From Candidatus Latescibacterota bacterium (lineage in GTDB: Bacteria; Latescibacterota; UBA2968; UBA8231), in assembly GCA_965217585.1 (NCBI GenBank), contig OZ244561.1, positions 4,768,001-4,832,000 on the forward strand: 64,000 nucleotides of DNA, given 5' to 3'. Numbering within the stretch: position 1 is the first letter of the stretch; every line of letters begins with the position of its first letter. The position numbers and the translations under genes were made by a program. The notes beneath the pieces were generated by a model that saw only the letters and a list, made by a program, of their open reading frames with translations, was not told the DNA's origin and made no database searches. Shown here one piece after another: positions 9,761 through 53,273 of the stretch.

Positions 9761-9806
9761 AGCCATGCTCCCCATGCCATAGTGAGATGGACGCGGGCCG
9801 CGCTCT

Positions 9807-37953: not shown

Positions 37954-37996
37954 TCTGTATCTCTCTTTGATCGGTTATCTACGCGGTGGTTCAATC

Positions 37997-38623
37997 TCAT
38001 CTCCTTAGCGACTCCAAGCTCGTTACCCAGTCGTTGAATCGAGGACATTCAGCGCGAATCTTGTCCAAGCCTATCTCCATTGCCAGAAGGGGACCGTCAA
38101 CTTTCTTCTCGTACCGGGGTATAACCTTCTTAATCCGTTTGCTCGGAGCCGTGTTCTCGTTGTCATTGATGTCTTCGGGCGTCGGGAATTGTGAACGGAT
38201 GTTTCGCAGGGCCTGTATGGATGTATGCGATACACCGATCAACTTGGTAAAGGCATCCACATCAGAAAACAACAGCCCCTCAAACTCATGTCGTTGGACA
38301 TATGGGAATACTTTTTGGGGATGCCATAGGTGGTCGAGTTTCTGGCGAAGGTTTTCCTCCAATTCATCGACTGTTTTATTTCCTTTGCTACGAAACCCAT
38401 AGAAGTCAACGAGCGATGTCACGGCATCGAAGCGGTGGAGTAAGTGGGTCATTTCCGACACGAGTTGCTTCACCGAAACATTTCCACCGGTAGATCTGCC
38501 GCGGGCGCGGCCAAACAGAATCGGTGTCGGTTCGACTCCTCTTCCCCGTAAGTGATCTGCGAGAAAATGTTTGACAAATTCCTCTTCGGTTTGGCCTTCC
38601 ACCGATATGGCCAGTCGGATCAC
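37997..38623 (-). CDS. DUF4276 family (TOPRIM-like) protein
   Basis: GTG start overlapping the ATPase stop; VEGQTEEEF, VDFYG, HEFEGLLFSD, PEDIND, PSKRI, CPRFNDW. Confidence 0.85.
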   Translation of the reverse strand: MIRLAISVEGQTEEEFVKHFLADHLRGRGVEPTPILFGRARGRSTGGNVSVKQLVSEMTHLLHRFDAVTSLVDFYGFRSKGNKTVDELEENLRQKLDHLWHPQKVFPYVQRHEFEGLLFSDVDAFTKLIGVSHTSIQALRNIRSQFPTPEDINDNENTAPSKRIKKVIPRYEKKVDGPLLAMEIGLDKIRAECPRFNDWVTSLESLRR

Positions 38624-39777
38624 GGGCGTCCTCCGAGCAGGTTCTTCTGCCAAAGCTCGCCCGATGTGAAGTTGTCGTCGAGCCATACTTGATAGTCGTC
38701 CGGGGACAGTTTGCGAAACTCAGTACGACCGTCCTGTAGATCTAACACGAAAATTTCGTCGAGACCGAACTCATCAACCAACAAGGGCGATTGCGTTGCC
38801 ACAATGACCTGCCTCTCCTCGGCGAGGGACTTTATCATACCCCCAATCAAGGCGATGGCTGCTGGATGCAGGCCCAGTTCTGGCTCGTCCAACAGGAGTA
38901 CGTCGGGCAACATCTCGGGTGGTAGATTGAGCAGTGTCACCAAGGCAAAGAACCGTAGAGAGCCGTCGGACGTGAGGTGCGCGCCAAAGGTCTTGTCCGT
39001 TCCCTTGGCCTTCCACCTTAGCAGCACTTTTCCGTAGCTCTCCTCGATCTGAAAACGGTCGAAGACTGGCAAGACTCGGCTGATATGCTGACAGATCAGC
39101 TCATATCGCTTGATATTTTCTCGCTCCAACCGGTGGAGAACGGCGGCTAAGTTGCCCCCGTGGCTAAGAAGGTAGTTGTTGTCCTCAGCATCCCATCTCT
39201 TTTTGAAGTTCGACTCGTCAGATGTATCGTGAAATTGGTATACCGAGCATCTCCGCAGCCTATTGACAATGCGCTCGGCGGTAAGCGGATTGGCTTCGAG
39301 CCAGTCGAGGGAGTAGTGAGCCGAAGGCGAGGGAGGTTGTGTGGCTTCGACGATCTTCGCTTCCAAATGACCACTTCCGAGATAATACCAGGATGTCGGG
39401 GGATAGAGATCGTTGGGATCGACGAATCGGAATGCCTCCTCCGCGAATATGAAATGGTCGGGCTGAGCACGGGAAAGCATGAACCGATAGTCGTTACGGC
39501 CTTCATCGGTTCGCAATCTAACCTCTGCCTCTATGCGTGGCGTGCGTCGGTTCCCGCCATGTAATTGGTCATCGGCCCCTCCTCGGCTAGCGACGAACTC
39601 TGCGAGTCTGCGAGACCCGAGCATCCAGCTCAGCATTTCGAAGAAGCGAACAAAATTGGACTTGCCCGAGCCGTTGGCACCAATTAGGACCGCCGCCTTG
39701 GGAATTCCCGCAAGCTCGACATCGGCTAACGATCGGAAGCCCTGGATGCGGACGTATTCAATCCTTGTTAGTCCCAT
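38620..39777 (-). CDS. AAA_21/AbiEii-type ABC ATPase
   Basis: Start moved to MGLTRIEYVRIQGFRS (AAGGA RBS); GANGSGKSN, SDGSLR, LLDEPELGLHP, ATQSP. Confidence 0.9.
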   Translation of the reverse strand: MGLTRIEYVRIQGFRSLADVELAGIPKAAVLIGANGSGKSNFVRFFEMLSWMLGSRRLAEFVASRGGADDQLHGGNRRTPRIEAEVRLRTDEGRNDYRFMLSRAQPDHFIFAEEAFRFVDPNDLYPPTSWYYLGSGHLEAKIVEATQPPSPSAHYSLDWLEANPLTAERIVNRLRRCSVYQFHDTSDESNFKKRWDAEDNNYLLSHGGNLAAVLHRLERENIKRYELICQHISRVLPVFDRFQIEESYGKVLLRWKAKGTDKTFGAHLTSDGSLRFFALVTLLNLPPEMLPDVLLLDEPELGLHPAAIALIGGMIKSLAEERQVIVATQSPLLVDEFGLDEIFVLDLQDGRTEFRKLSPDDYQVWLDDNFTSGELWQKNLLGGRP

Positions 39778-39789
39778 CTCGTTCCTTTC

Positions 39790-39925
39790 ACCTCGGCACC
39801 GCCAACAACATGGCGTCGAGTAGGCGTTTTTCGTTGCAGCCTTGAGGGTAGAGTGCCGATAGGGCGTTGGCAAGGCGAAGGAAGTCGGGGCCGCGATCTT
39901 GCTCGGCACCGATCAGCGTCCGCAG
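39790..39925 (-). repeat. 136-bp direct duplicate of the 3-prime end of the DUF1156 methyltransferase gene (copy of 40581-40716)
   Basis: Manual alignment: 7 mismatches in 136 bp, no gaps; encodes LRTLIGAEQDRGPDFLRLANALSALYPQGCNEKRLLDAMLLAVPR and is followed by TGA. Confidence 0.95.
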
Positions 39926-39928
39926 CCT

Positions 39929-40285
39929 CTAAGGTGACGGCGGATGGGAAATGCGGATACGACCGTCGCGGATCGTGACAACCGCCTGTATTTCCAGCGC
40001 TTGGCGATGTCGCTCGAGTACCTCGGCGATCAAGGCAATGCGTCGCTCCGCCGGCACGTCTGGGAGGCGCACCAAGCCTGCATGCGGGACCTTTTGCACG
40101 TAGACAAGCTCTCCGAAGTCGGTATCGATCGTCACCAAAATTCTGCCATCGGCGGCAGCGCGTTCCAGTAGCGCCCGATCTCCCGGGTCGGCTCCAAGCT
40201 CACGGGCCTCGACCACGTCATGCCCCTGGTCGCGCAGCCATGCTGCCAGACGGTGGCCGGCACACCGATCTACTAGGAATCTCAC
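39929..40285 (-). CDS. DUF5615 PIN-like toxin (VapC45-like)
   Basis: MRFLVD, LRDQGHDV, D..LL..A..DGRILVTIDTDFGEL. Confidence 0.9.
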   Translation of the reverse strand: MRFLVDRCAGHRLAAWLRDQGHDVVEARELGADPGDRALLERAAADGRILVTIDTDFGELVYVQKVPHAGLVRLPDVPAERRIALIAEVLERHRQALEIQAVVTIRDGRIRISHPPSP

Positions 40286-40533
40286 GAATCTGCAATCGAT
40301 ACGGCGGCCAGTGAATCTTTGGCGATAACTGCGTGCGCGTAGGCGGTACAGGCGCGAATGTCGTCCGGTTCTAGTTCGGGGTAATCCTCCAAAATGGCCT
40401 CCGTCGTTACGCCCTGCGTCATCAGACTCAGGATGAGTTCCACCGAAATTCGCATGTCGCGAATGATGGGCTTGCCACCAAAGACATCCGGGCGTGCGGT
40501 GATGCGCTTGAGCAATTGGGGATTAGTGGTCAT
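40282..40533 (-). CDS. DUF433 antitoxin (VapB45-like)
   Basis: RITARPDVFGGKPIIRDMRISV..IL...EDYPEL...DIRAC; GTGA overlap with the toxin. Confidence 0.92.
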   Translation of the reverse strand: MTTNPQLLKRITARPDVFGGKPIIRDMRISVELILSLMTQGVTTEAILEDYPELEPDDIRACTAYAHAVIAKDSLAAVSIADS

Positions 40534-40578
40534 GTCTCTCTCCGTGGTTATTACGTCCGACGTAAGTCTTCCGTCCGG

Positions 40579-43545
40579 CTACCTCGGCACCGCCAACAGC
40601 ATGGCGTCGAGTAGGCGTTTCTCGTTGCAGCCTTGAGGGTAGAGGGCGGATAGGGCGTTGGCAAGGCGGAGGAAGTCGGGGCCGCGATCTTGCTCGGCGT
40701 CGATCAGCGTCCGCAGTGCGTTGGCGTGACCGCTGGACTGGAGCAGCATGGCGGTGTGGACGCGGTCGAGGGTGGTGTCTCCAAGGGTCGCGGCGAGATG
40801 GTCGTCGGAGGCTTCGCCGTATCTCGGGCGTGGCTCCCGGACGAGAGTGGGTGCGCCGTCCTGCAAGTCGGGGAAGAGTGTCTGCTGCGAGCTGGTGTGC
40901 GGGTCGCTTTCGATGTAGTTGGCTGCGGCGGCAGCGCCGTCCTCGCCGAAGAGGTTCTTGGCGCGCTCGGACACTGGTAATAGGCGTACGACGCCCTTTT
41001 CTTGGCCGATGATGCGGTCGGTCCAGGTGTCGAGGTCAATGCCCATAGGCTGGGCGAAGCGGCGCACTACGTCGAAGGGGAGAGCAAATCCCGTGGCCGC
41101 TGCTTTGGCGACGGCTTCTTCGTCGGCCTCGTCTGTTTGTTCTTGATTCTCTGCAACAGGGGCTGTGCTCTGGAGCGTCCATAGGAAGAGCGCGGTTAGG
41201 CGGGCGTCCTCTTCCAGCGCGCCGGACAGGCCGTTGCGCGCTCGCGCTTCTGCGGTGCCGAGCACCTGTTGCAGCGCGGCGCGGCCGACTACCTCCCAGA
41301 CTTTCTCCAAATAATCGGGCAGGCCGATTATATCGCCCTCGGCGGTTTCGACGGCGCGGTAGCGGCTGAAGATTTCGAGCGCCGGGCCGATGCAGGCGAA
41401 GACCAGATCGGCACCTCGGATGCCCTCGCCCTGCAAGCGCTCGATCCAGTCAGCGACGCGGATCGGCAGTTCCCGCAGGACATCGGCCCAGTCGCCGATG
41501 GGGGCGTCTTCGGGACGTGGGCGGCAGATGAGGTGGATGCTGGTGGCGAGGGCGGCGGTGTCGCGTGCGTTGAGTCTGGACCCCATCTCGGTCGCAATCG
41601 GCCAGGAGCCGGTGATGGTCCAGCCGCCTTGGATCATGCCAGAGAGCAACGCCTCCCATCCCTCGGTGGTTTTGTGTGCGAAGACGACGGAGCCTACGCC
41701 ATCTTCTCTCAAAACCCGACGTCCCTCGGCGAAGGCTCGGGCCATAGCTCCTTCGTAGAATTCTTTATCCTTGGGTGCTCCATTAGCGTCTTTGACCTTC
41801 TCACACTGCACCGCTTCGCGGCTCTTGGGCGAAAGTACATTGTTCGCATCGAATGGGTCCCGTAGCAGCGGGTGGCTTGGTAGTGTGCGCTTGAGCCAGA
41901 CGAGGAAGAAGTCCGAGAGGTCAGCATAGGGTACAGCATCGTAGTAAGGAGGATCGGTGAACCAGACATCGGAGGCTTGATCGGGTAAAGGATGGTCAGT
42001 AGCATCAGCCGTTTGAACTTGACCGCCGCCACGGTTGACCGATGCATCAACCACGTCGGCAATCAGCACGAATCCACTTTTCCAGTTGCCTGGAGCCTCG
42101 GCTGTGATCACGACCTCTGCAAAGTCCCATACCATGGGGAGTGCCTGCCGGCCAAACGTATGCTGCATCTTTTCTGCCACGGCATTCCATCGAGTACACG
42201 ACATGTTGCTCATCGACACACGATTGAAAGCACAGGCCAATACCGATACCAATCCGGCTGTAGTTCCATTACGTACTGTGTCGAGCAACTCCACCAATGC
42301 CACCTTCTGCCGCGCCGTGAACAAGTCGCCGAAGGTCGTAATGCCGTATAAAGGGATCTGACTCCCAACAGCACGATGCGTGTCTTTTGTTGGAGCTGGT
42401 TCATCTGGCACCGGGCAAAGCCCCTGTTTACCTCCTCGCTCCCACTCGCCGAGTATATCCACCATCCGCTCCTGAGCCTTTCGCACCGCCTCGTAGTCCG
42501 CGTCTGTCGGCAGCCGATAGTGCCGCCCCGTCTGTCCAGACTTTATCGTCACCACCGCCGTCATCCGCGCCCCACCTGTCCGCCGCCCCTCCGCGTCAAA
42601 AATCACATCCGCGCCGCCCCGCTCAGCCGCAAGCTGCGCCCGCACTCGCTCCGGCGGTAGCACCGCGCCGCAGCACAGACAAGTCGCCCGCGCTCGCGTC
42701 ACCGTGCCGCCACGCACCTCTCTATCCGCCTTCGGCTCGAACACCTCAAACTCGACGCTCGGTGGCTCCCCTTCGGATCGCTCGACTCGATGCCGCAGCG
42801 CCCGCTTGCGCTTGGCCTTCTTGCACAGCCAAAATGAACGCATCAGCGGAATCTCCGCGCCGCAGTTGGGCGCTTCGCAGCGCACCGTCCGCGCCCACAA
42901 ATAGGCAATCGGCATCGCCCCGTCCGGGTCCTTGGGATACAGATCGGCCAACTCCTGCTCGGCCTGCCGCTTAATCTCGCCGCCGACCCGGCGCAGATCG
43001 TCGGCCAGCCCCGGCCCGTGCCGCGGAATGTCCTCCAGCATCACCTTGAGAATCAGGCAGGCCACCGGATTCAGATCGCTGGCGAACGCCTCGCAGCCCA
43101 GCCGCAATGCCTCCAGCGGAATCGAGCCACCGCCCGCAAACGGGTCCACCACAAGCGGCGGCTCCTCGCCATGCGCCGCCTTCACCAGCGCCCGACCCAC
43201 GTTGAGATGAGTGCGATCCGCAGCATTGTCCCAATTGGCGAAGTTGGCGATAAACGACAGCAACCCCTGTCGCAGTTCCGCGTCATTCGCCGGCGGTTGC
43301 CGCACCTCGCGCAGAATCTCCCGCGCTTGCTGCTTAAAGTCCTCCGGGCAGTGCGCGTCGCACGGGTCCGGCAGCAGCAACGCCAGCAACACTGCCCGCG
43401 ACGAAGCCAACGGCCGCCGCGCCCACCACAAGTGCAGCGTACTCGGATGCCCATGCCGAATCGACTTCTCCCGCGTCGCGTGCCGCGACACTTCGGCGAT
43501 GGGGAAATCCACTTCGGCCAGACGCTTGCATTCGCGGGGGATCAT
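40579..43545 (-). CDS. DUF1156-domain adenine-specific DNA methyltransferase
   Basis: LHLWWARRPL (DUF1156), DPFAGGGSIP (motif I), TDPPYY (motif IV), Zn ribbon CEAPNC / CLCC. Confidence 0.92.
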   Translation of the reverse strand: MIPRECKRLAEVDFPIAEVSRHATREKSIRHGHPSTLHLWWARRPLASSRAVLLALLLPDPCDAHCPEDFKQQAREILREVRQPPANDAELRQGLLSFIANFANWDNAADRTHLNVGRALVKAAHGEEPPLVVDPFAGGGSIPLEALRLGCEAFASDLNPVACLILKVMLEDIPRHGPGLADDLRRVGGEIKRQAEQELADLYPKDPDGAMPIAYLWARTVRCEAPNCGAEIPLMRSFWLCKKAKRKRALRHRVERSEGEPPSVEFEVFEPKADREVRGGTVTRARATCLCCGAVLPPERVRAQLAAERGGADVIFDAEGRRTGGARMTAVVTIKSGQTGRHYRLPTDADYEAVRKAQERMVDILGEWERGGKQGLCPVPDEPAPTKDTHRAVGSQIPLYGITTFGDLFTARQKVALVELLDTVRNGTTAGLVSVLACAFNRVSMSNMSCTRWNAVAEKMQHTFGRQALPMVWDFAEVVITAEAPGNWKSGFVLIADVVDASVNRGGGQVQTADATDHPLPDQASDVWFTDPPYYDAVPYADLSDFFLVWLKRTLPSHPLLRDPFDANNVLSPKSREAVQCEKVKDANGAPKDKEFYEGAMARAFAEGRRVLREDGVGSVVFAHKTTEGWEALLSGMIQGGWTITGSWPIATEMGSRLNARDTAALATSIHLICRPRPEDAPIGDWADVLRELPIRVADWIERLQGEGIRGADLVFACIGPALEIFSRYRAVETAEGDIIGLPDYLEKVWEVVGRAALQQVLGTAEARARNGLSGALEEDARLTALFLWTLQSTAPVAENQEQTDEADEEAVAKAAATGFALPFDVVRRFAQPMGIDLDTWTDRIIGQEKGVVRLLPVSERAKNLFGEDGAAAAANYIESDPHTSSQQTLFPDLQDGAPTLVREPRPRYGEASDDHLAATLGDTTLDRVHTAMLLQSSGHANALRTLIDAEQDRGPDFLRLANALSALYPQGCNEKRLLDAMLLAVPR
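43520..43544 (-). repeat. Methyltransferase start sequence, copy 1 (functional)
   Basis: AGACGCTTGCATTCGCGGGGGATCA on +; ATGA overlap with the OLD nuclease stop. Confidence 0.95.
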
Positions 43546-45518
43546 ACCGAGGCTTTCGTCTGAGTCTTGAGGGCTATGATGCTGGCGACGATCTTCTTGA
43601 GTGACTTGCTGGTCTTGCCATTGGAATCGGCATTTTCGATGATGTGTTGAATCACTGCGGCGTTCTTAAGCGCCTGGTCCCTTTTTGCTATCTCCAATTC
43701 CTTCTGCGCCTCCGAGAGCAACTGAGCAAAAAGGTCCTTTCCCACTTCGTCTTCCAGCGTTTTTTCCAACTTGACCTTGAAGCAAGCGCATGAGTCCCCA
43801 ACAAAGTCGGGCCAGTCCTCCTCCGGTTGGCGAAGAAGGCGCAGAAGGTACTTGTTACTTTCCGGCTTAGCGTTGTTTCCGTTGTGATCACCATCCCATA
43901 CACCATACACAGGAACTCCAAGTTGGCGAAAAATGACTAAAGGCCGATCCAGGTTGGCCTTTCCAAAGCAGGGGATGACGGTGACTCCTTGGCTGTCGAA
44001 ATCATGATTCATTGATTTTGCGACCCCAAGAATTGCCGCACGGTCGTCTTCGCCTTCAACCAACACCACTATATCTGCAAAGAATCCTTCGCTCATCCAG
44101 GGAGTCATTATCGTTTGAAGGCGGGGACGTAGTGTTTCGGCCGTATATCTTGTCCCTTGAGAGTTGTTTGCGGTCCATAGCTCATCGGCTACTACATCCA
44201 TATCCGCCTTCTTTAGTCGGGTGACCTTCGGTTTTCCATTCTCGTGAGTGCTTTTTCGTAAGACCCGGATATGTTCGAAGCGATCCAAGCCGACGAGCAG
44301 TGGGGAGTGGGTGGTATAAACGACCTGGGTGTTCTCGGCTACACCCGGAATCGTGCCAGTGGCAAGTTTCAATAGGACTGACGCCAGATGGCGTTGGCGA
44401 CTGGGATGCTGATACAACTCTGGTTCCTCAATCGCTAGGACAAGGCTAGGTAAATGAGGGTCGCCGGATTCCTGACTCGCATCTTCCTCCGAGATTCCGT
44501 CTTCTGGTATCATCTCTGCCCCTCGTGCCGCGATAAGGTGCTGTAACATCGTGACTATGAACGCTCGTTGGAGGCCGTGCCCCGTTCTCTCCACTCTCGA
44601 TTCATAACCATCTTCCAGAAGCTTGACTTGTGCCTGAGGCATAGGGATCGAAATATCCGCGAACTCGGACCATCTCAGAAGAACGCTGGCATCCGGCACA
44701 TAGGATTGAAGGGTGTTAGATAAACCACGCTCTAGGTCGTTCAACTCCGTGAGCTGTTTGGGGTCCATGATTTCCTTGAACTGATCTTGTGTGTGCTGTT
44801 TGAAATCCGCAAGGTCTTTCCGGTCTGTCAGTGCATTTCGCACTACGAGGTCCATTATTTCTGTGATGGGTGAACCCTTGTTCTCAGTAGCGTCTTCCTG
44901 TGCATCCCTCACTGCTGGTATGTGTATGAATCTGGTGTACCGCCCTAGATAGCCTTGGGCTACCTGTGTGAATCCAAAGAATTGTCCATCGTCCCGTAGG
45001 GGTGAACACTGTGTAGGGTTCTGGCTTTCCCACGTGGCCAATGCTCCGAGCACCTCATCTGCCGAACGGGCAGAGGGCAACGATGAGTACTCTTGTGTCT
45101 CTCTGATCTCGTTGTACTTGCTTCTGATACCTGTTTTGCTATCAGCGTTTCTGACGCAGACAAAGTCAGGATTTTGTAGGCGCATCCCGTAATAGGTGCC
45201 TGGCTTCCTCCCCTGTGTTTCAGAGAAGACCCGAACGACTGTCAGGACATCGTTGTCGATATAGGCCGAGAAAAAGTCTTTCGCGTCTGCGCTAAGATCG
45301 GTAAACGTAACCGCGATTTCTATATCCTGGGTTGTATCCTCAGAGTAAAAGTCCTCTACCGTAGTTTTGGCCAACGGGTTGTAGAAAAGCTCGAGTGCGC
45401 TCAGAAACGAGGACTTTCCTGAGCCGTTCCGTCCCACCAATGCAGTAAGGGAATCACAGGTGAGTGATTCGTCCAAAATAGATCGAAAATTCTTCACATG
45501 GACTTTTTGAATGAGCAT
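43542..45518 (-). CDS. OLD-family ATP-dependent endonuclease (ABC ATPase + TOPRIM)
   Basis: GRNGSGKSS, GHGLQR, IEEPELYQHP, TTHSP, LVEGEDD, WDGD. Confidence 0.9.
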   Translation of the reverse strand: MLIQKVHVKNFRSILDESLTCDSLTALVGRNGSGKSSFLSALELFYNPLAKTTVEDFYSEDTTQDIEIAVTFTDLSADAKDFFSAYIDNDVLTVVRVFSETQGRKPGTYYGMRLQNPDFVCVRNADSKTGIRSKYNEIRETQEYSSLPSARSADEVLGALATWESQNPTQCSPLRDDGQFFGFTQVAQGYLGRYTRFIHIPAVRDAQEDATENKGSPITEIMDLVVRNALTDRKDLADFKQHTQDQFKEIMDPKQLTELNDLERGLSNTLQSYVPDASVLLRWSEFADISIPMPQAQVKLLEDGYESRVERTGHGLQRAFIVTMLQHLIAARGAEMIPEDGISEEDASQESGDPHLPSLVLAIEEPELYQHPSRQRHLASVLLKLATGTIPGVAENTQVVYTTHSPLLVGLDRFEHIRVLRKSTHENGKPKVTRLKKADMDVVADELWTANNSQGTRYTAETLRPRLQTIMTPWMSEGFFADIVVLVEGEDDRAAILGVAKSMNHDFDSQGVTVIPCFGKANLDRPLVIFRQLGVPVYGVWDGDHNGNNAKPESNKYLLRLLRQPEEDWPDFVGDSCACFKVKLEKTLEDEVGKDLFAQLLSEAQKELEIAKRDQALKNAAVIQHIIENADSNGKTSKSLKKIVASIIALKTQTKASV

Positions 45519-45525
45519 TGTGTCG

Positions 45526-45738
45526 TTACCTCACCCGTATGAACGAATACCGGTCCTTGATGTTTTGGTGGAAGTAGGAACCCTTTGAGGCGGCTCGTAT
45601 TAGGCCCCGATAGATCACCTCCGGCACACCAGAGTACCGGTAGACTCCCCCACTATGAAACTCCAACTCCAGCATTTGGGCTTCTACCTCATACCCGACC
45701 GAACGGATGTTGCTGGAACTAACCGGCTGCCTGTCCAT
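45526..45738 (-). CDS. KTSC domain protein (70 aa)
   Basis: MDRQPVSSSNIRSVGYE...LELEFHSGGVYRYSGVP...A.SKGSYF..NIK; own AAGGAG RBS. Confidence 0.9.
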   Translation of the reverse strand: MDRQPVSSSNIRSVGYEVEAQMLELEFHSGGVYRYSGVPEVIYRGLIRAASKGSYFHQNIKDRYSFIRVR

Positions 45739-45756
45739 TGAATTCTCCTTTCTATG

Positions 45757-45891
45757 CGGCGGCTCCTCGCCGTGTGCCGCTTTCACTAGGTTGCGTACGA
45801 CCCGCTGTGGCCGCAGCGTACTCGAATGCCCGTGCCTAATTGACTTCTCCCACGCCGCGTGCTTGGAAACTTCGGCAATGGGAAAGTCCAC
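45757..45891 (-). pseudogene. Internally deleted relic of a DUF1156 methyltransferase N-terminus
   Basis: VDFPIAEVSKHAAWEKSIRHGHSSTL and LVKAAHGEEPP match the full gene (VDFPIAEVSRHATREKSIRHGHPSTL ... LVKAAHGEEPP) with most of the ~80 intervening residues missing. Confidence 0.85.
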
Positions 45892-45932
45892 GCATGGTGT
45901 TCTCTTTTCCTTGGTTACTCTGTTGGTCCTTT

Positions 45933-47156
45933 TTACTTTTTGCCTTTCCCGGCTTTGCCTCGCGGCCTTTTCGCCCGGGTTTTTGTCTCTTGTTTCGGTT
46001 TCCCTACCGTCAGTTCGCCACGCAAGGTCGGAGCCCCTGCCCTTATCTCGGCACGCAAGTTTACCACCTCCCGCGTGCGGTCGATTTCCGCCGCCAAGAT
46101 CGCCTCGTCCGGCAAAGCAGTTTTGTATTCGGCAGCCATCACCTTGTTCGGCAATCCATCGAGCGCGTACCGGGCAACGGCCTCATCCTTCTGGGCACAC
46201 AGAATTAGCCCGACCGGCGGGTTCTCATCCTCGTGCATCCAGTGTTCACGGGCGTAGTTGAGATAGAGGTGCATCTGCCCGGCGTCGGCGTGGGTGAATT
46301 TGCCTACCTTTAGATCGATGACCACCAAGCAGCGCAGACGCCGGTGGAAGAATAGCAGATCTACCCGGTACCACTCATCGCCGACGCGAAGCCGCCTCTG
46401 CCGACCCATGAAGCAGAAATCCCCACCTAGCTCTAGGAGGAATGTCTCCAAGCGGTCAATCAGCGATTCTTCAAGGTCGCTTTCGGAGTACTCGTCCTTG
46501 AGATCGAGGAATTCGAGGACGAATGGGTCCTTGATTCCCTCTTCGGGCAGGACGCGATCCTCGGGCCGCGCCTTCCGCCCCCGGGTGAGCATGACGGCCT
46601 TGTTCTTTGAAAGAGCAGTGCGTTCATAGAACTGGGAATTAATTTGCCGGTCGAGTTGGCGAACCGACCAACCTCCGCGCAGCGCCTCGGTTTCGTAGAA
46701 TTCACGGGCGTGCGTGTTATTGACCGATAGTAGCCGCACATAGGCGGACCAAGGAAGCGGAAAGTGCGAGGCGACGCTGGCCAGCGAAGATTCTCCAGAC
46801 GCTGTCTGGAGATTTCCGCTGGATTCTGATTCTGCAGACGCTGTCTGCGGAATCGGCCATGCGAGGTAGAACGCCTTCATGTTCCAGACATTGCGGATCG
46901 AGAATCCACGGCCGTAATGGGCGGAGAGGTCAGTGGCAAGCCGTTCGACAATCTCCTCTCCATAGTCCGCTCGCTGTTCGCCTGACTGCTCAAACTCCAC
47001 GATGTGCCGTCCGATCATCCAATACGCGGCGGTCATAACGGCATTCACTGACCGAGCGGCCGACTGCCTAGCGGCGTCAACAATCCTCGACACATCGCCA
47101 AAGATGGCTTGGTACTGAGCATCCGGCTTGTCGTCTGTGAGTACCGGCTTTTTCAT
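45933..47156 (-). CDS. yhcG: DUF1016 / YhcG PD-(D/E)XK nuclease
   Basis: YWMIGRHIVEFEQ, GRGFS, WSVRQLDRQI, IKDPFVLEFL, FLLELG, DLLFFHRRLRC, DLK, GQMHLYLNY, PVGLILC. Confidence 0.92.
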   Translation of the reverse strand: MKKPVLTDDKPDAQYQAIFGDVSRIVDAARQSAARSVNAVMTAAYWMIGRHIVEFEQSGEQRADYGEEIVERLATDLSAHYGRGFSIRNVWNMKAFYLAWPIPQTASAESESSGNLQTASGESSLASVASHFPLPWSAYVRLLSVNNTHAREFYETEALRGGWSVRQLDRQINSQFYERTALSKNKAVMLTRGRKARPEDRVLPEEGIKDPFVLEFLDLKDEYSESDLEESLIDRLETFLLELGGDFCFMGRQRRLRVGDEWYRVDLLFFHRRLRCLVVIDLKVGKFTHADAGQMHLYLNYAREHWMHEDENPPVGLILCAQKDEAVARYALDGLPNKVMAAEYKTALPDEAILAAEIDRTREVVNLRAEIRAGAPTLRGELTVGKPKQETKTRAKRPRGKAGKGKK

Positions 47157-47189
47157 GATCTGCTCTGCTCCCCGTAGAGGGTTTTAGCG

Positions 47190-47214
47190 AGACGCTTGCA
47201 TTCGCGGGGGATCA
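47190..47214 (-). repeat. Methyltransferase start sequence, copy 2
   Basis: 25/25 identical to 43520-43544; GTGA overlap with the HEPN stop. Confidence 0.95.
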
Positions 47215-47604
47215 CAGTATGCGTTCCTCGGCCCAGCGGATGACGACTTCGGCGATGGCTAGCGCTTCCCGATACTCCTGTTCGGTGACTGTCTGGTTCA
47301 TAGGGTAGCGAGTAACTGTGGCGAATCGAGTGAGCTTTCTGGCCTGTCCGACGGCGTCTGGGATCGCTTCGCCTGCTTCCTTGAGCAGGGAAAGTAATCG
47401 GGCCAAATCATGTACGTAGGGGAAGTCGATGTCGCGCTTAATCATCAACGCCTTGATGGCTTTCTCGGCTGCTTGCTGGGCCTCAAAGCACAGGTCTTCT
47501 AGGTAGGCTTGTGGTACGCGGTTTTTCGCCATCGCCAGACTGCTTCTGGCGCGATTCATCCATTCGCGAGGATCGTCGGCGGGAAAACGCTCAGGTTCCT
47601 TCAT
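47212..47604 (-). CDS. HEPN domain protein
   Basis: Start MKEPERF; CFEAQQAAEKAIKA, HDLARL, TRYP. Confidence 0.9.
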   Translation of the reverse strand: MKEPERFPADDPREWMNRARSSLAMAKNRVPQAYLEDLCFEAQQAAEKAIKALMIKRDIDFPYVHDLARLLSLLKEAGEAIPDAVGQARKLTRFATVTRYPMNQTVTEQEYREALAIAEVVIRWAEERIL

Positions 47605-47917
47605 ATACGACCCTGCCTTCTTGCAATGCCGGCTTGACAATCACCGCGTGGCTATCCTTATACCGCTCTACATCGTCGGGCGTGACGACAACAGCATCGA
47701 CGGCTGCGCCGACGCCATCGAGATTCATATAGATATCGCCCATAAGTTCAAGCGGGTTCTCACATTCTTTGATGATGAGCAGATCGACGTCGCTGTGGCG
47801 GTTCATCTCGCCGCGAGCAGCAGACCCGAAGAGGATGATCTTCTCCGGTTGAGCCACCTCTACAATGCGCCGGATGATGTCGTCCAATGTTTGTTGGTCA
47901 AGCATCCCCTTGTTCAT
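47591..47917 (-). CDS. Minimal nucleotidyltransferase (MNT) partner of HEPN
   Basis: LFGSAARG....SDVDLLII (GSx10DxD). Confidence 0.9.
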   Translation of the reverse strand: MNKGMLDQQTLDDIIRRIVEVAQPEKIILFGSAARGEMNRHSDVDLLIIKECENPLELMGDIYMNLDGVGAAVDAVVVTPDDVERYKDSHAVIVKPALQEGRVVYEGT

Positions 47918-47946
47918 GGCTTCTCTCCTAGCAGCAAGCCGCGCCT

Positions 47947-48085
47947 GTTCTTGACCGATAGCAGTCGCACATAGATGGACTAAGGAAGTGAAAAGCGTGA
48001 GGCGACGCTGGCCAGAGAAGATCCGACAGACAGTGTCTGGCGAATCTCGTCACCTGCCAATTTTCAGACGGTGTCTGAAAAATTC
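47947..48085 (-). pseudogene. Degenerate fragment of a second DUF1016/YhcG gene
   Basis: Minus strand encodes IFQTPSE and QTLSVGSSLASVASRFSLP*SIYVRLLSVKN versus QTASGESSLASVASHFPLPWSAYVRLLSVNN in the intact gene; in-frame TAG. Confidence 0.8.
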
Positions 48086-48131
48086 GTTCGGCTGACCGCC
48101 AAGCAACGCCGCCGCCGATAGAAACCGACTG

Positions 48132-48398
48132 TCACTCACCGATCCAAGGATTGACGACTTCAACGCCGGTATTCCGATATGCGTAGTGCCTAGACTCCGG
48201 CAACTCGACCCCATGCTCGGGGCCAAAATACCGCCTGAAAGCCTCGGAAGGCGTTGCGCGGTGCTCAGCCTTGGCGCGCTTCTCGCGGATCAGACGGCGG
48301 ATGAACTCTTCCATTGACACGCCGACTTGGCGCGCTTCCCGTTTGAGCCAGGCTTTGTCCGCCGGGTCGATATCGCGGACAGTGACAGTGGAACTCAT
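48132..48398 (-). CDS. FitA-like ribbon-helix-helix antitoxin fused to the C-terminal tail of a deleted VapC/FitB toxin
   Basis: TVTVRDID..DK..LK..A...GVSMEE.IRRLI (RHH); terminal TGVEVVNPW is typical of PIN toxins; AAGGAGG RBS. Confidence 0.75.
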   Translation of the reverse strand: MSSTVTVRDIDPADKAWLKREARQVGVSMEEFIRRLIREKRAKAEHRATPSEAFRRYFGPEHGVELPESRHYAYRNTGVEVVNPWIGE

Positions 48399-48446
48399 CG
48401 CGGCCTCCTTATCAGGTATTGCGTTTGATCAACAAAAAAGCCTAAT

Positions 48447-48465
48447 GACAGCAAAATATGCTGTC
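48447..48465. promoter_or_regulatory. Palindromic operator upstream of the FitA-like gene
   Basis: GACAGCA-N5-TGCTGTC perfect inverted repeat ~50 bp upstream of the start. Confidence 0.55.
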
Positions 48466-48499
48466 GAGTACCCTGATCGGCGAATCCAGAACACAGGAA

Positions 48500-48524
48500 A
48501 GACGCTTGCATTCGCCGGGGATCA
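48500..48524 (-). repeat. Methyltransferase start sequence, copy 3
   Basis: 24/25 identical to 43520-43544; GTGA overlap with the AlbA_2 gene stop. Confidence 0.92.
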
Positions 48525-49760
48525 CGCTGGCTTCGCTTCCTTCCATAGGCGCACGGTGAAGCGGTACTCCTCCGCGATCAGGTCCGGCTCGGTGCCGTTG
48601 TGGGCCAACATGCCGGGAATGATTTTGTTCCGAATGCCCATGCCACGTGCATCCACATAGCCGTAGTCGCGCATCACGTTGACTAAGGTCTGGTTGCGGG
48701 CGTAGCGCAGCCCCAATCGCATCCCAGCGGGCGTCACCGTGTTGGGCAGGCGGCCCGGGCTGACCACTTCGAGGCGATCCGAGTAGATGACGAGCATGAT
48801 GTCAGTCCCCACGATGCTGTAATCGCGGTGTACAAGGGCATTGACCACGGCCTCGCGCACCACGTCTTCGGGAAATTCCCAGCGGTCGATCCGACGCGCC
48901 CCTTCCAAATAGGCAGTGGGCGTCGTATTGCGCCGCACGAAATCCCACGCCTTATCTACAAGACCCAGCTTGACAAGCTCCCCGTCCTCGGGGTCGCAGA
49001 GTGGAACCATGGGGCCTTTGAGGTCCTCGTCCGCACGGGTTGCATAATCCGGCTCCGGGCCTAAGTAGCAAATAGCTCGAATGCCCGATTGCGGAAGAAA
49101 CCGCTTGGGGTTCTTGCCAAACAGAAGCATTCCGTCGATGGTTGCGACCATCCGGCCCGCTGCTGGGGTCGCAAGTTCGAGGTTTTGCAGCAGCCTTTGC
49201 CACTGATCGACATCGTTTGTCGGCGGAACGCTGCCGCCTAGAACGCGGCCAAAATAGTCGCGCAAATGCCGCTGGTTGAGCGAGTCGAGCACCGTGCCGG
49301 GGACGGGCTTTAAGCCGTAACGGAACAATCCTCCCTGTCGGTAGAGCCGTTCTTCTTCCTCGCGGCCTGCGGTACGCGTAGTCGTTCCGACGCGCACCTG
49401 AGTAACCCAATTTTCCCCGCGCTTGGCCTTGTAAGGCTTATCCGGCGCATCTCTGGGAAGAGATATAACGCCGACCGTTTTCCCGTTTCCCCAGTCCACG
49501 GTCTCCCAAAAGGGAATCGTTGCCGGCAAGACGTGGGTACGCGCTGTCTCCATCACCCATTCCTCCACCTTGCGCGGCTCTCGCATGAGACCGGTAACCG
49601 AGCCATTGTCCTCGACGCCGAGGAAAATGTACCCGCCTTCCAGATTGAGCAGAGCTGCAATTTCCGTGGCCAGTCGTTCCGGGCGAAGGTCAGCGCGCTT
49701 GAACTCCACGCCAGAGTTCTCGCCGCTGCGGATCAGTTCGATCAAATCGGCTTTGTTCAT
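48522..49760 (-). CDS. AlbA_2 (Schlafen-like) + HATPase_c_4 (RecG-C-like) protein
   Basis: Start moved to MNKADL; GENSGVEFKR, ALLNLEGG.IFLGVED.G, REAVVNALVHRDY, SPGRLP, RNQTL, GMGI. Confidence 0.9.
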   Translation of the reverse strand: MNKADLIELIRSGENSGVEFKRADLRPERLATEIAALLNLEGGYIFLGVEDNGSVTGLMREPRKVEEWVMETARTHVLPATIPFWETVDWGNGKTVGVISLPRDAPDKPYKAKRGENWVTQVRVGTTTRTAGREEEERLYRQGGLFRYGLKPVPGTVLDSLNQRHLRDYFGRVLGGSVPPTNDVDQWQRLLQNLELATPAAGRMVATIDGMLLFGKNPKRFLPQSGIRAICYLGPEPDYATRADEDLKGPMVPLCDPEDGELVKLGLVDKAWDFVRRNTTPTAYLEGARRIDRWEFPEDVVREAVVNALVHRDYSIVGTDIMLVIYSDRLEVVSPGRLPNTVTPAGMRLGLRYARNQTLVNVMRDYGYVDARGMGIRNKIIPGMLAHNGTEPDLIAEEYRFTVRLWKEAKPA

Positions 49761-49814
49761 GGTTGCCTCAGAAGCCGTACTACCAGCGGCACCCCACATT
49801 CCATTTTGGCCTTC

Positions 49815-52800
49815 TCATTCATCTCGTGTCTTCCATCTTCCGGATGTCTTCTGGCCTTCCCGAATTTCCATCGGCTGCTTGAGAGTGTCAACGCTCAGAT
49901 AGTAGTGGGCGACCTTGATGACCTCGTGCCACGGGAACCGGGCCGGGTCTTTGACCGGCTCCTGAAGCTCTGGGGTACTGGCGCAGTTGGTCACCACGTA
50001 GAGCCAGTAGCAGTCGCGGCGATCCTCGGCGACGCGACGCTCGTTGGGCGTCAGCAGAATGCTGCCGGTGGCGGCGGCGAGACCTTTAATCTCGATCAGA
50101 CGCAACTCGCCGGACGCTGGATCGAGGCTAGTTATATCGTAGCCAAGATTCTTCTCGTGGACATCTTCGACCTGACGACCTTGCGAAATCTCGTACTCCA
50201 TGACCACTCGCATCGCCGTCATCTCAGTTTCGGGATGTGGACGCAGACGCCGGACATCGAGGGTGTCGCGTTCGGGATGGGGCAGGATCAAGACGCTGGC
50301 GAGCCGCTCAACTCCCTGCAAGGTCAGCGCCCGCTGCCGCTCAAATTCATCGCGCCGACGGTCGCGGCGCGCCATCACCTCGGCATGGCGGGCTTCGGCC
50401 TGCGCCAAGCGGCCCTCGGCACCGATTACGTTGTTATCCCTCTCCTCGGCGGCACGGCCAATCTCCTCATCGGTCCGCTGTAGAACCTCCGTCAAGGACA
50501 GTTTGACGTGATCGGCAATGCGCTCAACTTCGGCCAGACGCTCGGCGCGAACCTCGTTGATAAAAGCGACCAAGGCGTTTTCATTGAGCCAAGCGGTCGC
50601 CTCTGGTAGCGCGGCTACCGGCGGCAGATCGCCCGGAGCGGTGGTGGGGCTGAGATTGCCAAGGGCATCCGGCTCGCGGAGACAGGGAGATCCGTCATTG
50701 GTCAACTCCACGGTGAACAACCGTTCGTGAATGACGTGTCCGAGACCATCCACGACCCGCGCCCGGTAGAAATCGAGACGCGCCGGTGCTGCGTGCGCTA
50801 GGGAATGGAAACAGGCTCCCTTGGCAAAGGCATCCTGGCCGAGATTGAGACTGTGCCGGCGCAGGGCCTCAAACAGGGGATGCCCTGGGGTGACCCATTC
50901 GAGGTTGTGCTCCTCTGCTGTGTCGCGGTCCGTTGACAAGCGCGGATAGCGCATCGCTAGCTCTGGGAGTTTCCAGTCTGGATTGTGCTCGTATTCCTTC
51001 AATTTGGGTGGTATCCGCCCTGGATCGAAGGTATGCGCCAAGTGGCCCACCGGCTTCAGAGTTAGGGCCGCGTGTTGGGCGCACTCCGCGATGAATCGCG
51101 CAATGGTTTCGGGTACGACGCGCCGCTCTTGGGCCTTGGCTCGGCGCTCGACGAGCATGTCGAGGTTGAGCTTTTTAGAGGCCAAGCCTTCCAGTGCCGT
51201 CTGGCAGATGGCCCGGAAGTGGCCTTCATCCACGTCCTGCAAAAGCCGCTCTTCAAGGTCAGCGTCCCCCAACTTTTCCGCGTAGTAGTCCCGTAGCACG
51301 CGCTCCACGTGGGCGGACGGCAAGACTTCGCCGACCACGTTGAATACCGAGTCGTCATCGAGGGCGTCGCGAATCTCCTGGAGCTTGTCCAACAACCGCT
51401 GGAGCACCCGCCCCTCAATGGTGTTGGTTGCCACGAAGTTGAAGATCAGGCAATCGCGCCGCTGGCCGTAGCGGTGAATGCGGCCCATGCGCTGTTCGAG
51501 CCGGTTCGGATTCCAGGGGATGTCGTAGTTGAAGAGGATGTGGCAGCACTGAAGGTTGATGCCTTCCCCAGCCGCCTCGGTAGCCACCAAAACTTGGATG
51601 GCACCTTCGCGGAACTGCTGTTCGGTATAGAGCCGGCTTCCTGGTTCGTCGCGTGAGCCGGGCTTCATGCCGCCGTGGATGCAGCCGACGCTGAAGCCCC
51701 AGTCTCGCAAGCACTCCATCAGGTGGTCGAGGGTGTCCTTGAACTCGGTGAAGAGCAGCAGTTGCTGATCGGGCCGGTCGAAGAACCCCTCCTCCTGCAT
51801 GATTTTGCGGAGATGTCCGAGTTTCGCTTGGCTGCCCGAGTCTTCGGCGGCCTTGGCCTCTTCGGCAAGCTGGAGAAGTTCGCTGATCTCTTCGCGTATC
51901 TGCTCGGCGTTGCCAGCCAGCGTGATAGCCTCCAGCATCTCCTCTAAGCGCTCGCGCTCGGCATCTTCCAATTCCTCCAGCTCTTCTAGGTCGGGAAGGT
52001 CCGGCGGTGCAGTCCGCACCAACTCCTGGGCGCGCTTGAGTCCCTCCTCCAGACGCCGGGCGCGGTTTTCGAGCGACCGCCGCATAGCGTAGGTGCTGGA
52101 GGCGAGACGCCGCTGGTACAGCGACATCAGGAAACCGACCGCCCGAGCACGCGGGTTGTCGCCCTGCGCGGCGGCGCGAGCGCTCTGCCGTTTGACAAAC
52201 CGCGTGATCTTTTGGTAAAGCTCAAGCTCTGGACCATCTATAGCGAAGTCCGCGGTGCGTGGGATGCGCTTGGTGAAAACAGGCTTCGCAGTCCACGTTC
52301 CGTCCGTCTGGCGCTCCGGGAAGTACACCATCGCTTCCTTGGTGCGCCGCAGGTAAAAAGGCGCTCGCCTCCGTTCCATAGCCTCGCGGATTGAACTCAC
52401 ATCGGCGTAGGCATCCTGATCGAGCAGTTGCAGAAACAGCGTGAAATTCTGCGGATCGCCCTTGTGGGGCGTGGCGGTCAGCAGCAGTACGTGATCGGCG
52501 CTGTCGCGCAGCAATTCTCCCAGCCGGTAGCGCTGGCTCTTGTGGGTCTCGTCGCGCGCCGACATGCGGTGTGCCTCATCGACAATCACCAAATCCCAAC
52601 GCACCTGTTGCAGGCCGGGCAAGATCTCGGTGCGCTTGGCGAGGTCGAGCGAGGTGATGATCTGCTTTTGCTCCAGCCACTGGTTGACACCGAATTGATC
52701 GCGGATGTCGCTGCCTTTTAACACTAGGAACTTCTCGTCGAACTTTTCCTTGAGCTCACGCTGCCACTGGAACGTCAGGTTCGCGGGGCAGACGACGAGT

Positions 52801-53273
52801 ACCTGTTCGATGAGGCCCCGGAGCTTCAACTCGCGGATCAGAAGGCCGGCCATGATAGTCTTGCCCGCACCCGCATCGTCGGCGAGCAAGAAGCGCACGG
52901 TGGGCAGCTTGAGGAGGTGCTCGTACACCGCTTCGAGCTGGTGCGGTAGGGGATCTACGCGCGAGATGGAAAGCCCGAAATAGGGATCGAACTCGTAGGC
53001 GATGCCGAGCGCATAGGCTTGGAGGCCGATTCGCAAAAGCCGTCCATCGCCATTGTAGGAAAGAGCGGCCTCGGCGATGGTCAGGTTGGAAATGTCATCG
53101 GCAGTGAGCGTGACCTGACGGAACTGCTCGGACCGCTGGCCGACGAGGCCCGCCTCCACGTAATCAGTACCGTTCGCGCGAACGGTTACCACTCGCATTG
53201 GCTCGCTAAACAGCGGGCCGGTCAGAACCTGTCCTTCGCGGATGGCGGGTTCAACTACCACTTCACCACTCAA
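49815..53273 (-). CDS. SNF2-family helicase with C-terminal DUF3883 nuclease domain
   Basis: LLADDAGAGKT, DEAH, LTATP, EGINLQ, WNPNRLEQRMGRIHRYGQ; C-terminal GYDITS...IEIKG...LTPNE. Confidence 0.93.
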   Translation of the reverse strand: MSGEVVVEPAIREGQVLTGPLFSEPMRVVTVRANGTDYVEAGLVGQRSEQFRQVTLTADDISNLTIAEAALSYNGDGRLLRIGLQAYALGIAYEFDPYFGLSISRVDPLPHQLEAVYEHLLKLPTVRFLLADDAGAGKTIMAGLLIRELKLRGLIEQVLVVCPANLTFQWQRELKEKFDEKFLVLKGSDIRDQFGVNQWLEQKQIITSLDLAKRTEILPGLQQVRWDLVIVDEAHRMSARDETHKSQRYRLGELLRDSADHVLLLTATPHKGDPQNFTLFLQLLDQDAYADVSSIREAMERRRAPFYLRRTKEAMVYFPERQTDGTWTAKPVFTKRIPRTADFAIDGPELELYQKITRFVKRQSARAAAQGDNPRARAVGFLMSLYQRRLASSTYAMRRSLENRARRLEEGLKRAQELVRTAPPDLPDLEELEELEDAERERLEEMLEAITLAGNAEQIREEISELLQLAEEAKAAEDSGSQAKLGHLRKIMQEEGFFDRPDQQLLLFTEFKDTLDHLMECLRDWGFSVGCIHGGMKPGSRDEPGSRLYTEQQFREGAIQVLVATEAAGEGINLQCCHILFNYDIPWNPNRLEQRMGRIHRYGQRRDCLIFNFVATNTIEGRVLQRLLDKLQEIRDALDDDSVFNVVGEVLPSAHVERVLRDYYAEKLGDADLEERLLQDVDEGHFRAICQTALEGLASKKLNLDMLVERRAKAQERRVVPETIARFIAECAQHAALTLKPVGHLAHTFDPGRIPPKLKEYEHNPDWKLPELAMRYPRLSTDRDTAEEHNLEWVTPGHPLFEALRRHSLNLGQDAFAKGACFHSLAHAAPARLDFYRARVVDGLGHVIHERLFTVELTNDGSPCLREPDALGNLSPTTAPGDLPPVAALPEATAWLNENALVAFINEVRAERLAEVERIADHVKLSLTEVLQRTDEEIGRAAEERDNNVIGAEGRLAQAEARHAEVMARRDRRRDEFERQRALTLQGVERLASVLILPHPERDTLDVRRLRPHPETEMTAMRVVMEYEISQGRQVEDVHEKNLGYDITSLDPASGELRLIEIKGLAAATGSILLTPNERRVAEDRRDCYWLYVVTNCASTPELQEPVKDPARFPWHEVIKVAHYYLSVDTLKQPMEIREGQKTSGRWKTRDE

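Follow-up and report, generated by a model that had tools for sequence, protein, structure and literature searches.

Duplicated ends of a methylase gene beside embedded cargo in an Hma defence locus of a Latescibacterota bacterium

Why should three different genes in one operon each end in the start sequence of a methyltransferase? The question arises from a 64,000-nucleotide (nt) stretch of Candidatus Latescibacterota bacterium DNA (GenBank assembly GCA_965217585.1, contig OZ244561.1, positions 4,768,001 to 4,832,000 of the forward strand), which we call the window and number from its first letter. Judging by its gene content, the 18-kb region 35176-53273 is one Hma (HmaA-HmaB-HmaC) defence operon with embedded cargo; all of its genes lie on the minus strand, PADLOC finds HmaA, HmaB and HmaC once each, and anti-phage activity is presumed from family membership. 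The methyltransferase is HmaB, an intact DUF1156 N6-adenine enzyme of 988 amino acids (aa) at 40579-43545 (PADLOC E=2.7e-116; Pfam DUF1156). The cargo amounts to seven genes in the hmaA-hmaB gap and four in the hmaB-hmaC gap; read from HmaA to HmaB, the order is AlbA_2, a lone RHH gene, a YhcG fragment, MNT-HEPN, YhcG, KTSC and OLD. The best explanation of this arrangement, from the comparisons below, is that unrelated defence and toxin-antitoxin modules were repeatedly spliced in on both sides of hmaB.

Copies of the hmaB ends in the window

The 25-mer TGATCCCCSGCGAATGCAAGCGTCT was found on the minus strand at 43520-43544, 47190-47214 and 48500-48524, each time with 0 mismatches to the search pattern. 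Open reading frames (ORFs) end at 43542 (OLD), 47212 (HEPN) and 48522 (AlbA_2), so the TGA within each copy terminates a different gene. This is what the original prediction, made from the window alone, had described, and its gene names agree with Pfam and PADLOC. The copy at 43520-43544 belongs to the resident HmaB, which starts with ATG, and the two others (relics 1 and 2) start with GTG. Both are best read as scars of former hmaB starts rather than as a recombination site, and each appears still to overlap the stop of the gene that once preceded hmaB. The predicted motif was recovered, but the repeats proved longer than the 25 nt ascribed to them: relics built on the 25-mer measure 26-40 nt in the window, and scars elsewhere reach 391 nt.

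The individual relics, all on the minus strand, differ in how far they run into the gene. Relic 1 (48460-48525) consists of GTG and HmaB nt 2-26 (24/25 identical), degenerates to ~nt 40 and then passes into the RHH promoter region. Its extension to ~nt 40 was recognised by comparison with the same junction in two related loci (L028 and L081), and this junction class also occurs in G010 and G014 (G numbers are our handles for genomes, L numbers for loci). Relic 2 (47183-47215) holds HmaB nt 1-33 with a GTG start, is identical to the resident gene at 29/33 positions and is followed by the YhcG leader; the same nt-33/YhcG junction is present in G013, G002, G014 and L055. The fourth, longer relic that had been noted after YhcG was confirmed as relic 3 (45756-45891), an internally deleted piece made of HmaB nt 34-126 and 352-391, with nt 391 joined to the KTSC ribosome-binding site. 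Within it, identity to HmaB is 84% for 45813-45891 (against nt 34-112) and 88% for 45756-45789 (against nt 358-391). Its nt-391/KTSC junction recurs, with a similar internal deletion, in a genome of a different family (G077, family f4). Relic 3 is also in frame with KTSC, giving a 121-codon ORF (45526-45891) from a GTG that was formerly HmaB codon 12.

Relic 3 takes up at nt 34 exactly where relic 2 leaves off at nt 33, so the two are matching halves of a single older, diverged HmaB 5' end, 84-88% identical to the resident gene. The YhcG cassette (45892-47182; Pfam, PADLOC PDC-S02), whose gene lies at 45933-47156, sits cleanly between them. The other end of the methylase gene is duplicated as well, as had been predicted: the last 136 nt of HmaB recur at 39790-39925 and match 40581-40716 at 95% over 136 nt. 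This 3' relic retains its own TGA, 10 nt ahead of the HEC-01A start, and its class is found again in G013, G126 and G019.

Assembly error or chance repetition is almost inconceivable as the source of these copies. No match to the pattern arose in 100 shuffles of the window, and the genome is a single contig of 7,323,734 bases in which no further copy of the 25-mer was found with up to 3 mismatches tolerated. Moreover, the same junction classes occur in separate assemblies, and short-read contigs of run X19 are identical (0 differences) to 43511-44070 and 45268-45996, which takes in two of the junction regions. Among the listed X19 pieces, no contig spanned both relic 25-mers.

Junctions and breakpoints in related loci

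Loci of 13 genomes, and of 14 further genomes, from the same phylum carry the same modules in other arrangements. MNT-HEPN adjoins a full HmaB through an ATGA or GTGA overlap in six relatives (G001, G005, G009, G013, G034 and G143), OLD adjoins HmaB in G077, and AlbA_2 adjoins a full or long HmaB in G150 and L027. As HEPN, OLD and AlbA_2 each adjoin a full or long HmaB elsewhere, the predicted former coupling of all three to an HmaB start is supported, and newer material does lie between the old starts and the intact gene. YhcG adjoins HmaB relics in three Longimicrobiales loci (L019, L053 and L084). Stop-start overlap with whatever gene lies upstream appears to be the norm for HmaB, judging by reading frames: the frame ending at the overlapping TGA was open for at least 80 codons at 36 of 57 scorable starts, compared with 3/58 and 1/58 in the control frames.

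The predicted order of acquisition, with AlbA_2 oldest and KTSC-OLD newest, did not hold. The nt-391/KTSC junction recurs in G077, which belongs to a different family, and YhcG interrupts the relic that carries it, so the junction is old and YhcG entered later; the array is therefore not a chronological record. The modules of G013 run HmaA, AlbA_2, the 33-mer, YhcG, ..., HmaB[1-174], MNT-HEPN and HmaB, unlike those of the window, and the gene upstream of the shared nt-33/YhcG junction is HEPN in the window, L055, G014 and G002 and AlbA_2 in G013. A candidate for wider spread of the nt-391/KTSC junction was rejected, since the relic in L076 ends near nt 390 without KTSC or OLD after it. A 5' HmaB segment specific to the two KTSC-OLD loci (the window and G077) was also sought, with no clear signal.

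The ends of HmaB mark recombination boundaries, as had been predicted. The window is colinear with G013, G002 and G007 through HmaA and AlbA_2, and this colinearity breaks off precisely where relic 1 ends, at 48500. Past that position lies YhcG in G013, MNT in G002 and more HmaB in G007. Identity to G013 and G002 is 95-99.5% in the AlbA_2 block vs. 87-94% in the upstream HmaA, which suggests that the AlbA_2 cassette was shared more recently than its surroundings. The methylase gene is itself a mosaic, with flanks that are 80-97% identical among relatives and a central segment of ~900 nt (~41400-42300) at 43-60%, and its central alleles are shared patchily (fully with G013, partly with G089). 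From this pattern, the centre of HmaB looks like a site of swapping of the target-recognition segment.

Relics were also found away from hmaB. An orphan HmaB 3' relic, comprising the last ~104-144 nt at 86.5% nucleotide identity and with its own TGA, lies at G000:C1:4003557-4003700 (L114 7558-7701), where it directly precedes an AAA_21 and DUF4276 (HEC-01-like) pair amid unrelated genes, with the Hma locus 0.8 Mb away. AlbA_2 together with an HmaB 5' relic is found downstream of HmaC, outside the hma genes, at 4267-5761 of L092 (G007) and 16983-19996 of L103 (G089), and the block in G089 also holds MNT-HEPN, part of YhcG, DUF433 and PIN. The two blocks look like exported copies of a cargo block. 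Because the orphan relic precedes a HEC-01-like pair and AlbA_2 lies beyond HmaC with its relic in both genomes, cargo appears to take its scar along.

Breakpoints were variable. The 5' relics end at nt 26-40, 33, 37, 39, 50-52, 70-72, 85-91, 117-139, 174, 261, 281 and 391, and the 3' relics are 29-202 nt long. Across 57 HmaB starts from several phyla, the peptide MIPRECKRL... is near-invariant while third-codon positions vary freely, so the constraint acts on the protein and not on a DNA site; the same variation rules out the 25-mer as a nucleotide-conserved site. Cargo is cut arbitrarily too, with truncated pieces of YhcG (aa 1-24, 116-156 and 328-383), AlbA_2 (aa 365-425) and HEPN (aa 111-142), and YhcG fragments stand ahead of MNT in G001, G010 and G145.

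No integrase, recombinase or transposase family was found among the 16 locus ORFs and 14 flank ORFs scanned in the window. The relatives contain 102 same-strand ORFs of at least 130 aa inside hma intervals, of which 18 were dropped (interval edges or overlap with larger ORFs); the 84 scanned included 0 integrases and 3 DDE transposases, in 3 relatives, and the rest belong to defence-type families or are of unknown type. The predicted absence of an integrase therefore stands for the scanned ORFs of the locus, its flanks and the relatives' cargo. On reading by eye, there was no palindrome in the 25-mer and neither an inverted repeat nor a target duplication at the two ends of the YhcG cassette, and the window locus has the defining features of neither a transposon nor an insertion sequence. 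Separately, two HmaB pieces in L112 (G107) flank a DDE transposase gene of ISAZ013 type (9699-10907), and the methylase gene there is broken.

Integrons stack cassettes of one orientation beside a fixed point and express them as an operon. The window locus resembles them in its stacking, but it lacks IntI, a fixed attC-like site (or any sites of defined position and conserved structure) and strict order, and its breakpoints vary. Nor is the newest cassette nearest the methylase gene, as the innermost nt-391/KTSC-OLD junction is shared with G077 and its relic is interrupted by YhcG. We consider it highly improbable, and disfavour the idea, that the hmaB start would be an attachment site at which a recombinase, or an Hma or cargo nuclease, inserted cassettes in order. 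In its favour, insertions recur beside hmaB, every relic is direct, and several of the junction classes fall close together, at nt 33-44. A 20-codon mini-ORF (47215-47153) starts in relic 2 and ends in a TGA that overlaps the YhcG ATG, and such an ATGA relay from a relic mini-ORF onto the next gene start is seen in five junction classes. By our own estimate, these relays occur at about the rate expected by chance if one in three joints falls in frame to already-coupled genes, and we make no claim of selection for them. Set against ordered insertion at a site are breakpoints that range over nt 26-391 for 5' relics and 29-202 nt for 3' relics, variation at the synonymous positions of the motif, 0/84 integrases, arbitrary truncation of cargo and a module order that changes between genomes. 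The integron-like accretion put forward in the original prediction, taken as a site-specific process, is not supported, given the same variable breakpoints, free synonymous sites and cargo fragments.

To see how common and how end-specific the scars are, each of 22 related loci with a near-full HmaB was queried by blastn with its own gene; these loci are kin from one class of one phylum, so the counts are descriptive and are not tests. HmaB fragments were present elsewhere in the locus in 12 of the 22, giving 29 matches, all in direct orientation; 19 derive from the 5' region and the other 10 from the final ~150 nt. The sole HmaB piece beyond ~nt 400 (nt 697-745) is fused to a 5' relic in G014. 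HmaC had 5' relics in 2/20 loci and fragments of other gene parts in 2 more; no HmaA fragments were found in 12 loci by blastn, and two decayed loci showed 3' fragments of HmaA by tblastn. When exact 20-mers were required, HmaB was positive at the 5' end in 7/22 loci, at the 3' end in 7/22 and mid-gene in 0/22. The corresponding counts were 1/20, 0/20 and 0/20 for HmaC and 0/12 in all three positions for HmaA. Of the ORFs in the window's genome that reach 300 aa, 160/3948 were positive at the 5' end, 189/3948 at the 3' end and 131/3948 mid-gene; HmaB is one of 24/3948 that were positive at both ends without mid-gene. This per-ORF test replaced the genome-wide density of local 20-mer repeats, an uninformative control dominated by tandem paralog arrays. 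A degenerate-motif scan of one genome per species, which selects for the motif, returned 73 stretches from Latescibacterota, Gemmatimonadota, Acidobacteriota, Proteobacteria, Opitutales and others, and the relics there add junction classes.

This distribution also bears on whether two Hma variants might once have stood in tandem after a large homologous integration, with later deletions leaving stumps of hmaB. Internal deletions in the relics (nt 127-351 in the window and 262-696 in G014) do point to decay of longer copies, G002 and G019 have degenerate loci that carry large deletions, and the window's genome has three other DUF1156 systems. Still, random decay would be expected to leave mid-gene HmaB fragments and HmaA fragments, which were seen in 0/22 and 0/12 loci, and both kinds of relic lie exactly where cargo meets hmaB. 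We regard fused loci as a very unlikely origin of the scars.

How cargo may enter at the methylase gene

We think it probable that cargo enters by homology-anchored cassette exchange, in which the second joint is illegitimate or uses short homology and selection for an intact methylase filters the outcome. Donor DNA from another Hma locus would bring cargo together with an hmaB end and would recombine by homology within the strongly conserved ends of hmaB. A second joint would form illegitimately, or via very short homology, slightly inside the end of the resident hmaB. That end would then be displaced outward as a relic, and the incoming end would restore an intact methylase. Events that broke the methylase of a restriction-like system would be lost, so that only restoring events would be seen. 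Afterward, the relic would move with its cargo gene and could act as a short homology arm for later swaps or deletions. In this scheme, we infer the recombination pathway, the direction of transfer, the role of selection and the illegitimate joint.

Two known processes resemble this scheme. In naturally transformable bacteria, homology-facilitated illegitimate recombination inserts foreign DNA beside a conserved gene by means of one homologous anchor and one illegitimate joint. It would give exactly such partial duplications, and both the window's architecture and its mosaic hmaB would be compatible with it. Integrative elements that target gene ends, such as tRNA 3' ends, restore the target end with incoming DNA and leave a displaced partial copy in place, using an integrase and a fixed core site. 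On our reading the window locus would be alike in its restored target and displaced copy, but an integrase and a fixed core site were not found there.

Architecture does not separate cassette exchange from a Campbell-type route, which would yield the same direct repeats at both hmaB ends. A circle carrying cargo and a short hmaB end would integrate by a single homologous crossover, duplicating the homology it carried, and excision would regenerate circles. A RecA-type crossover would have enough homology in the relics of 118-281 nt and in the 3' duplication (136 nt, 95%), and deletion between relics would account for the AlbA_2-relic-YhcG order in G013 compared with the window. However, given minimal homology lengths, relics of 26-40 nt are marginal substrates for such a crossover, the source of circles without a recombinase is left unexplained, and no circle junction appeared in the read data, which are Logan short contigs of mixed communities. 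We find this route unlikely. Variant joints do occur in those contigs: 47928 joined to 43511 (HmaB nt ~35/MNT junction) in X24, a skip of 47930-48144 in X19, X23 and X24, and a skip of 46815-48063 in X23. These joints may come from relatives.

Several points weigh against cassette exchange as the source of the scars. Constraint, rather than recent exchange, could partly explain the higher identity of the AlbA_2 block. The 22 loci, being from one class of one phylum, are non-independent, and the relics from other phyla come from a motif-selected scan. The very conserved N-terminus eases the detection of older relics, and this may have inflated the end bias. The mixed-community short contigs, which cannot show excision or integration, showed neither circles nor excision in this strain. 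Finally, some six junction classes, apparently independent of one another, end at nt 33-44, a possible preferred break site; we would tentatively put this clustering down to a fall-off with distance, together with a lower limit of detection near 25 nt.

If the clustering were instead a true entry zone at nt ~33-44, the hmaB termini might be the recombinase-free homology arms of a cassette-exchange platform, with nuclease-stimulated capture and relic coupling, a possibility that we rate as distinctly unlikely. Breaks near the hmaB start, perhaps made by YhcG, OLD or the HmaA nuclease domain, would stimulate the capture of cargo from other Hma loci, and the start codon and mini-ORF of the relic would keep each newcomer translationally coupled. 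Were this true, Hma would be a self-organising collector of defence genes.

Homology-anchored cassette exchange, the reading that we prefer, predicts recA-dependent and integrase-independent gain of cassettes from donors with an hmaB end. The scars would then be physical evidence, at single-nucleotide resolution, that cargo enters at methylase gene ends and that incoming DNA brings the replacement end. With the displaced end staying on the older cargo gene, scars would mark exchange boundaries, and catalogues of them could be used to rebuild cassette histories across thousands of loci. Short ORFs starting MIPRECKRL are relics, not genes.

Embedding of genes inside Hma, BREX, DISARM and type I restriction-modification loci is published, and "guilt by embedding" has been used to discover systems. 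Passages of Payne et al. (2024, bioRxiv 10.1101/2024.01.29.577857) describe the same system type and the same phenomenon, with cargo between hmaA, hmaB and hmaC: 931 of 1,485 Hma systems have embedded genes, of 376 cassette types, and 3.1% are mobility proteins. HEC-01 is shared with the window and is a candidate there, without protection in their assays. Embedding is treated in these passages under a 'genomic sink' idea and without a mechanism ('recombination' occurs 0 times), and the main-text passages searched, supplementary tables excluded, make no mention of duplicated hmaB-end scars. The pipeline described there admits at most three embedded genes per gap and excludes pseudogenes, and stacked loci were perhaps left out because of these two limits. 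Annotation pipelines that insist on a single intact copy per hma gene, or on few embedded genes, will pass over the loci with the heaviest stacking. Type-1 'BR' (DUF499-centred BREX-related) systems have, from passages describing them, the same gene set as Hma under another name, with a methylase that carries DUF1156 as an N-terminal helical domain and with auxiliary nucleases embedded in the core loci (Nucleic Acids Res 2026, PMC12839542); those passages give no account of how embedded genes arrive and no gene-end duplications. The original prediction had supposed the phenomenon to be undescribed. Embedding in Hma was in fact already published, but the literature searched on Hma embedding, DUF1156 and defence-system recombination remnants, supplements excluded, held no account of hmaB-end duplications. 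What is new here is the interpretation of the repeats as probable scars of HmaB ends.

Genes of the window locus

The remaining genes are described from HmaA toward HmaC, all on the minus strand. HmaA (49815-53273) is a predicted SNF2/DEAD helicase with a NOV_C nuclease-like C-terminus (PADLOC E=1e-169; Pfam Helicase_C, SNF2-rel_dom, ResIII and NOV_C). The first cargo gene encodes an AlbA_2 and HATPase_c_4 protein (48522-49799; Pfam), with its stop TGA (48522-48524) inside relic 1. It is followed by a FitA-like RHH antitoxin-type gene without a partner toxin (48132-48398; Pfam PF22513). Upstream of the RHH gene, a perfect 7-bp inverted repeat, GACAGCA/TGCTGTC, at 48447-48465 overlaps a TTGACA-like box and is likely the autoregulated promoter of a toxin-antitoxin remnant whose toxin was lost.

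Beyond the RHH gene lies a YhcG relic (47940-48043) that corresponds to YhcG nt 345-448 and matches 46709-46812 at 82% in the repeat search. The intact YhcG has a 39-nt tandem duplication in the area 46788-46848 that holds the palindromic CAGACAGCGTCTG, and similar palindromes occur in the YhcG relic region (48030-48075). In G010, where YhcG is mostly missing, the 61-nt YhcG piece is 98% conserved. Between relic and gene, MNT (47591-47917) and HEPN (47212-47640; together 47212-47917) are adjacent and overlap at 47591-47640, as in an MNT-HEPN pair (Pfam NTP_transf_2/Polbeta and HEPN), with the HEPN stop inside relic 2. By family, they form a toxin-antitoxin-type pair with putative toxicity.

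Next to the methylase gene, a 70-aa KTSC-domain gene (45526-45738; Pfam PF13619) is 90% identical in G077, and its true start is likely the ATG at 45738, behind AAAGGAG. OLD (43542-45518) is a predicted OLD-family ABC ATPase-TOPRIM nuclease (Pfam AAA_15 and OLD-like_TOPRIM; PADLOC Old E=7e-56), and its stop overlaps the HmaB start as ATGA, as it does in G077. On the other side of HmaB are DUF433 (40282-40533) and a DUF5615/PIN-like gene (39929-40285), together spanning 39929-40533 (Pfam). These are followed across 37997-39777 by HEC-01A (38620-39777, AAA_21; PADLOC E=3e-115) and HEC-01B (37997-38686, DUF4276; PADLOC E=6.8e-66). HmaC, a DUF499 ATPase, closes the operon at 35176-37953 (PADLOC E=1.9e-94; Pfam DUF499). 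The cargo matched Old, PDC-S02, PDC-S09, HEC-01A and HEC-01B in PADLOC, as expected of genes embedded in Hma, and the flanks of the locus code for metabolic and transport proteins.

Three more DUF1156/DUF499/helicase systems are present in the window's genome, at ~880-892 kb, 3,076-3,087 kb and 5,965-5,978 kb. Their methylases have ~32-43% aa identity to HmaB, and two of the systems enclose MNT- or AlbA_2-like genes. A 90-nt patch of HmaB (nt 67-156) has 92% nucleotide identity to two of these paralog methylases, a likeness that may reflect gene conversion or codon bias.

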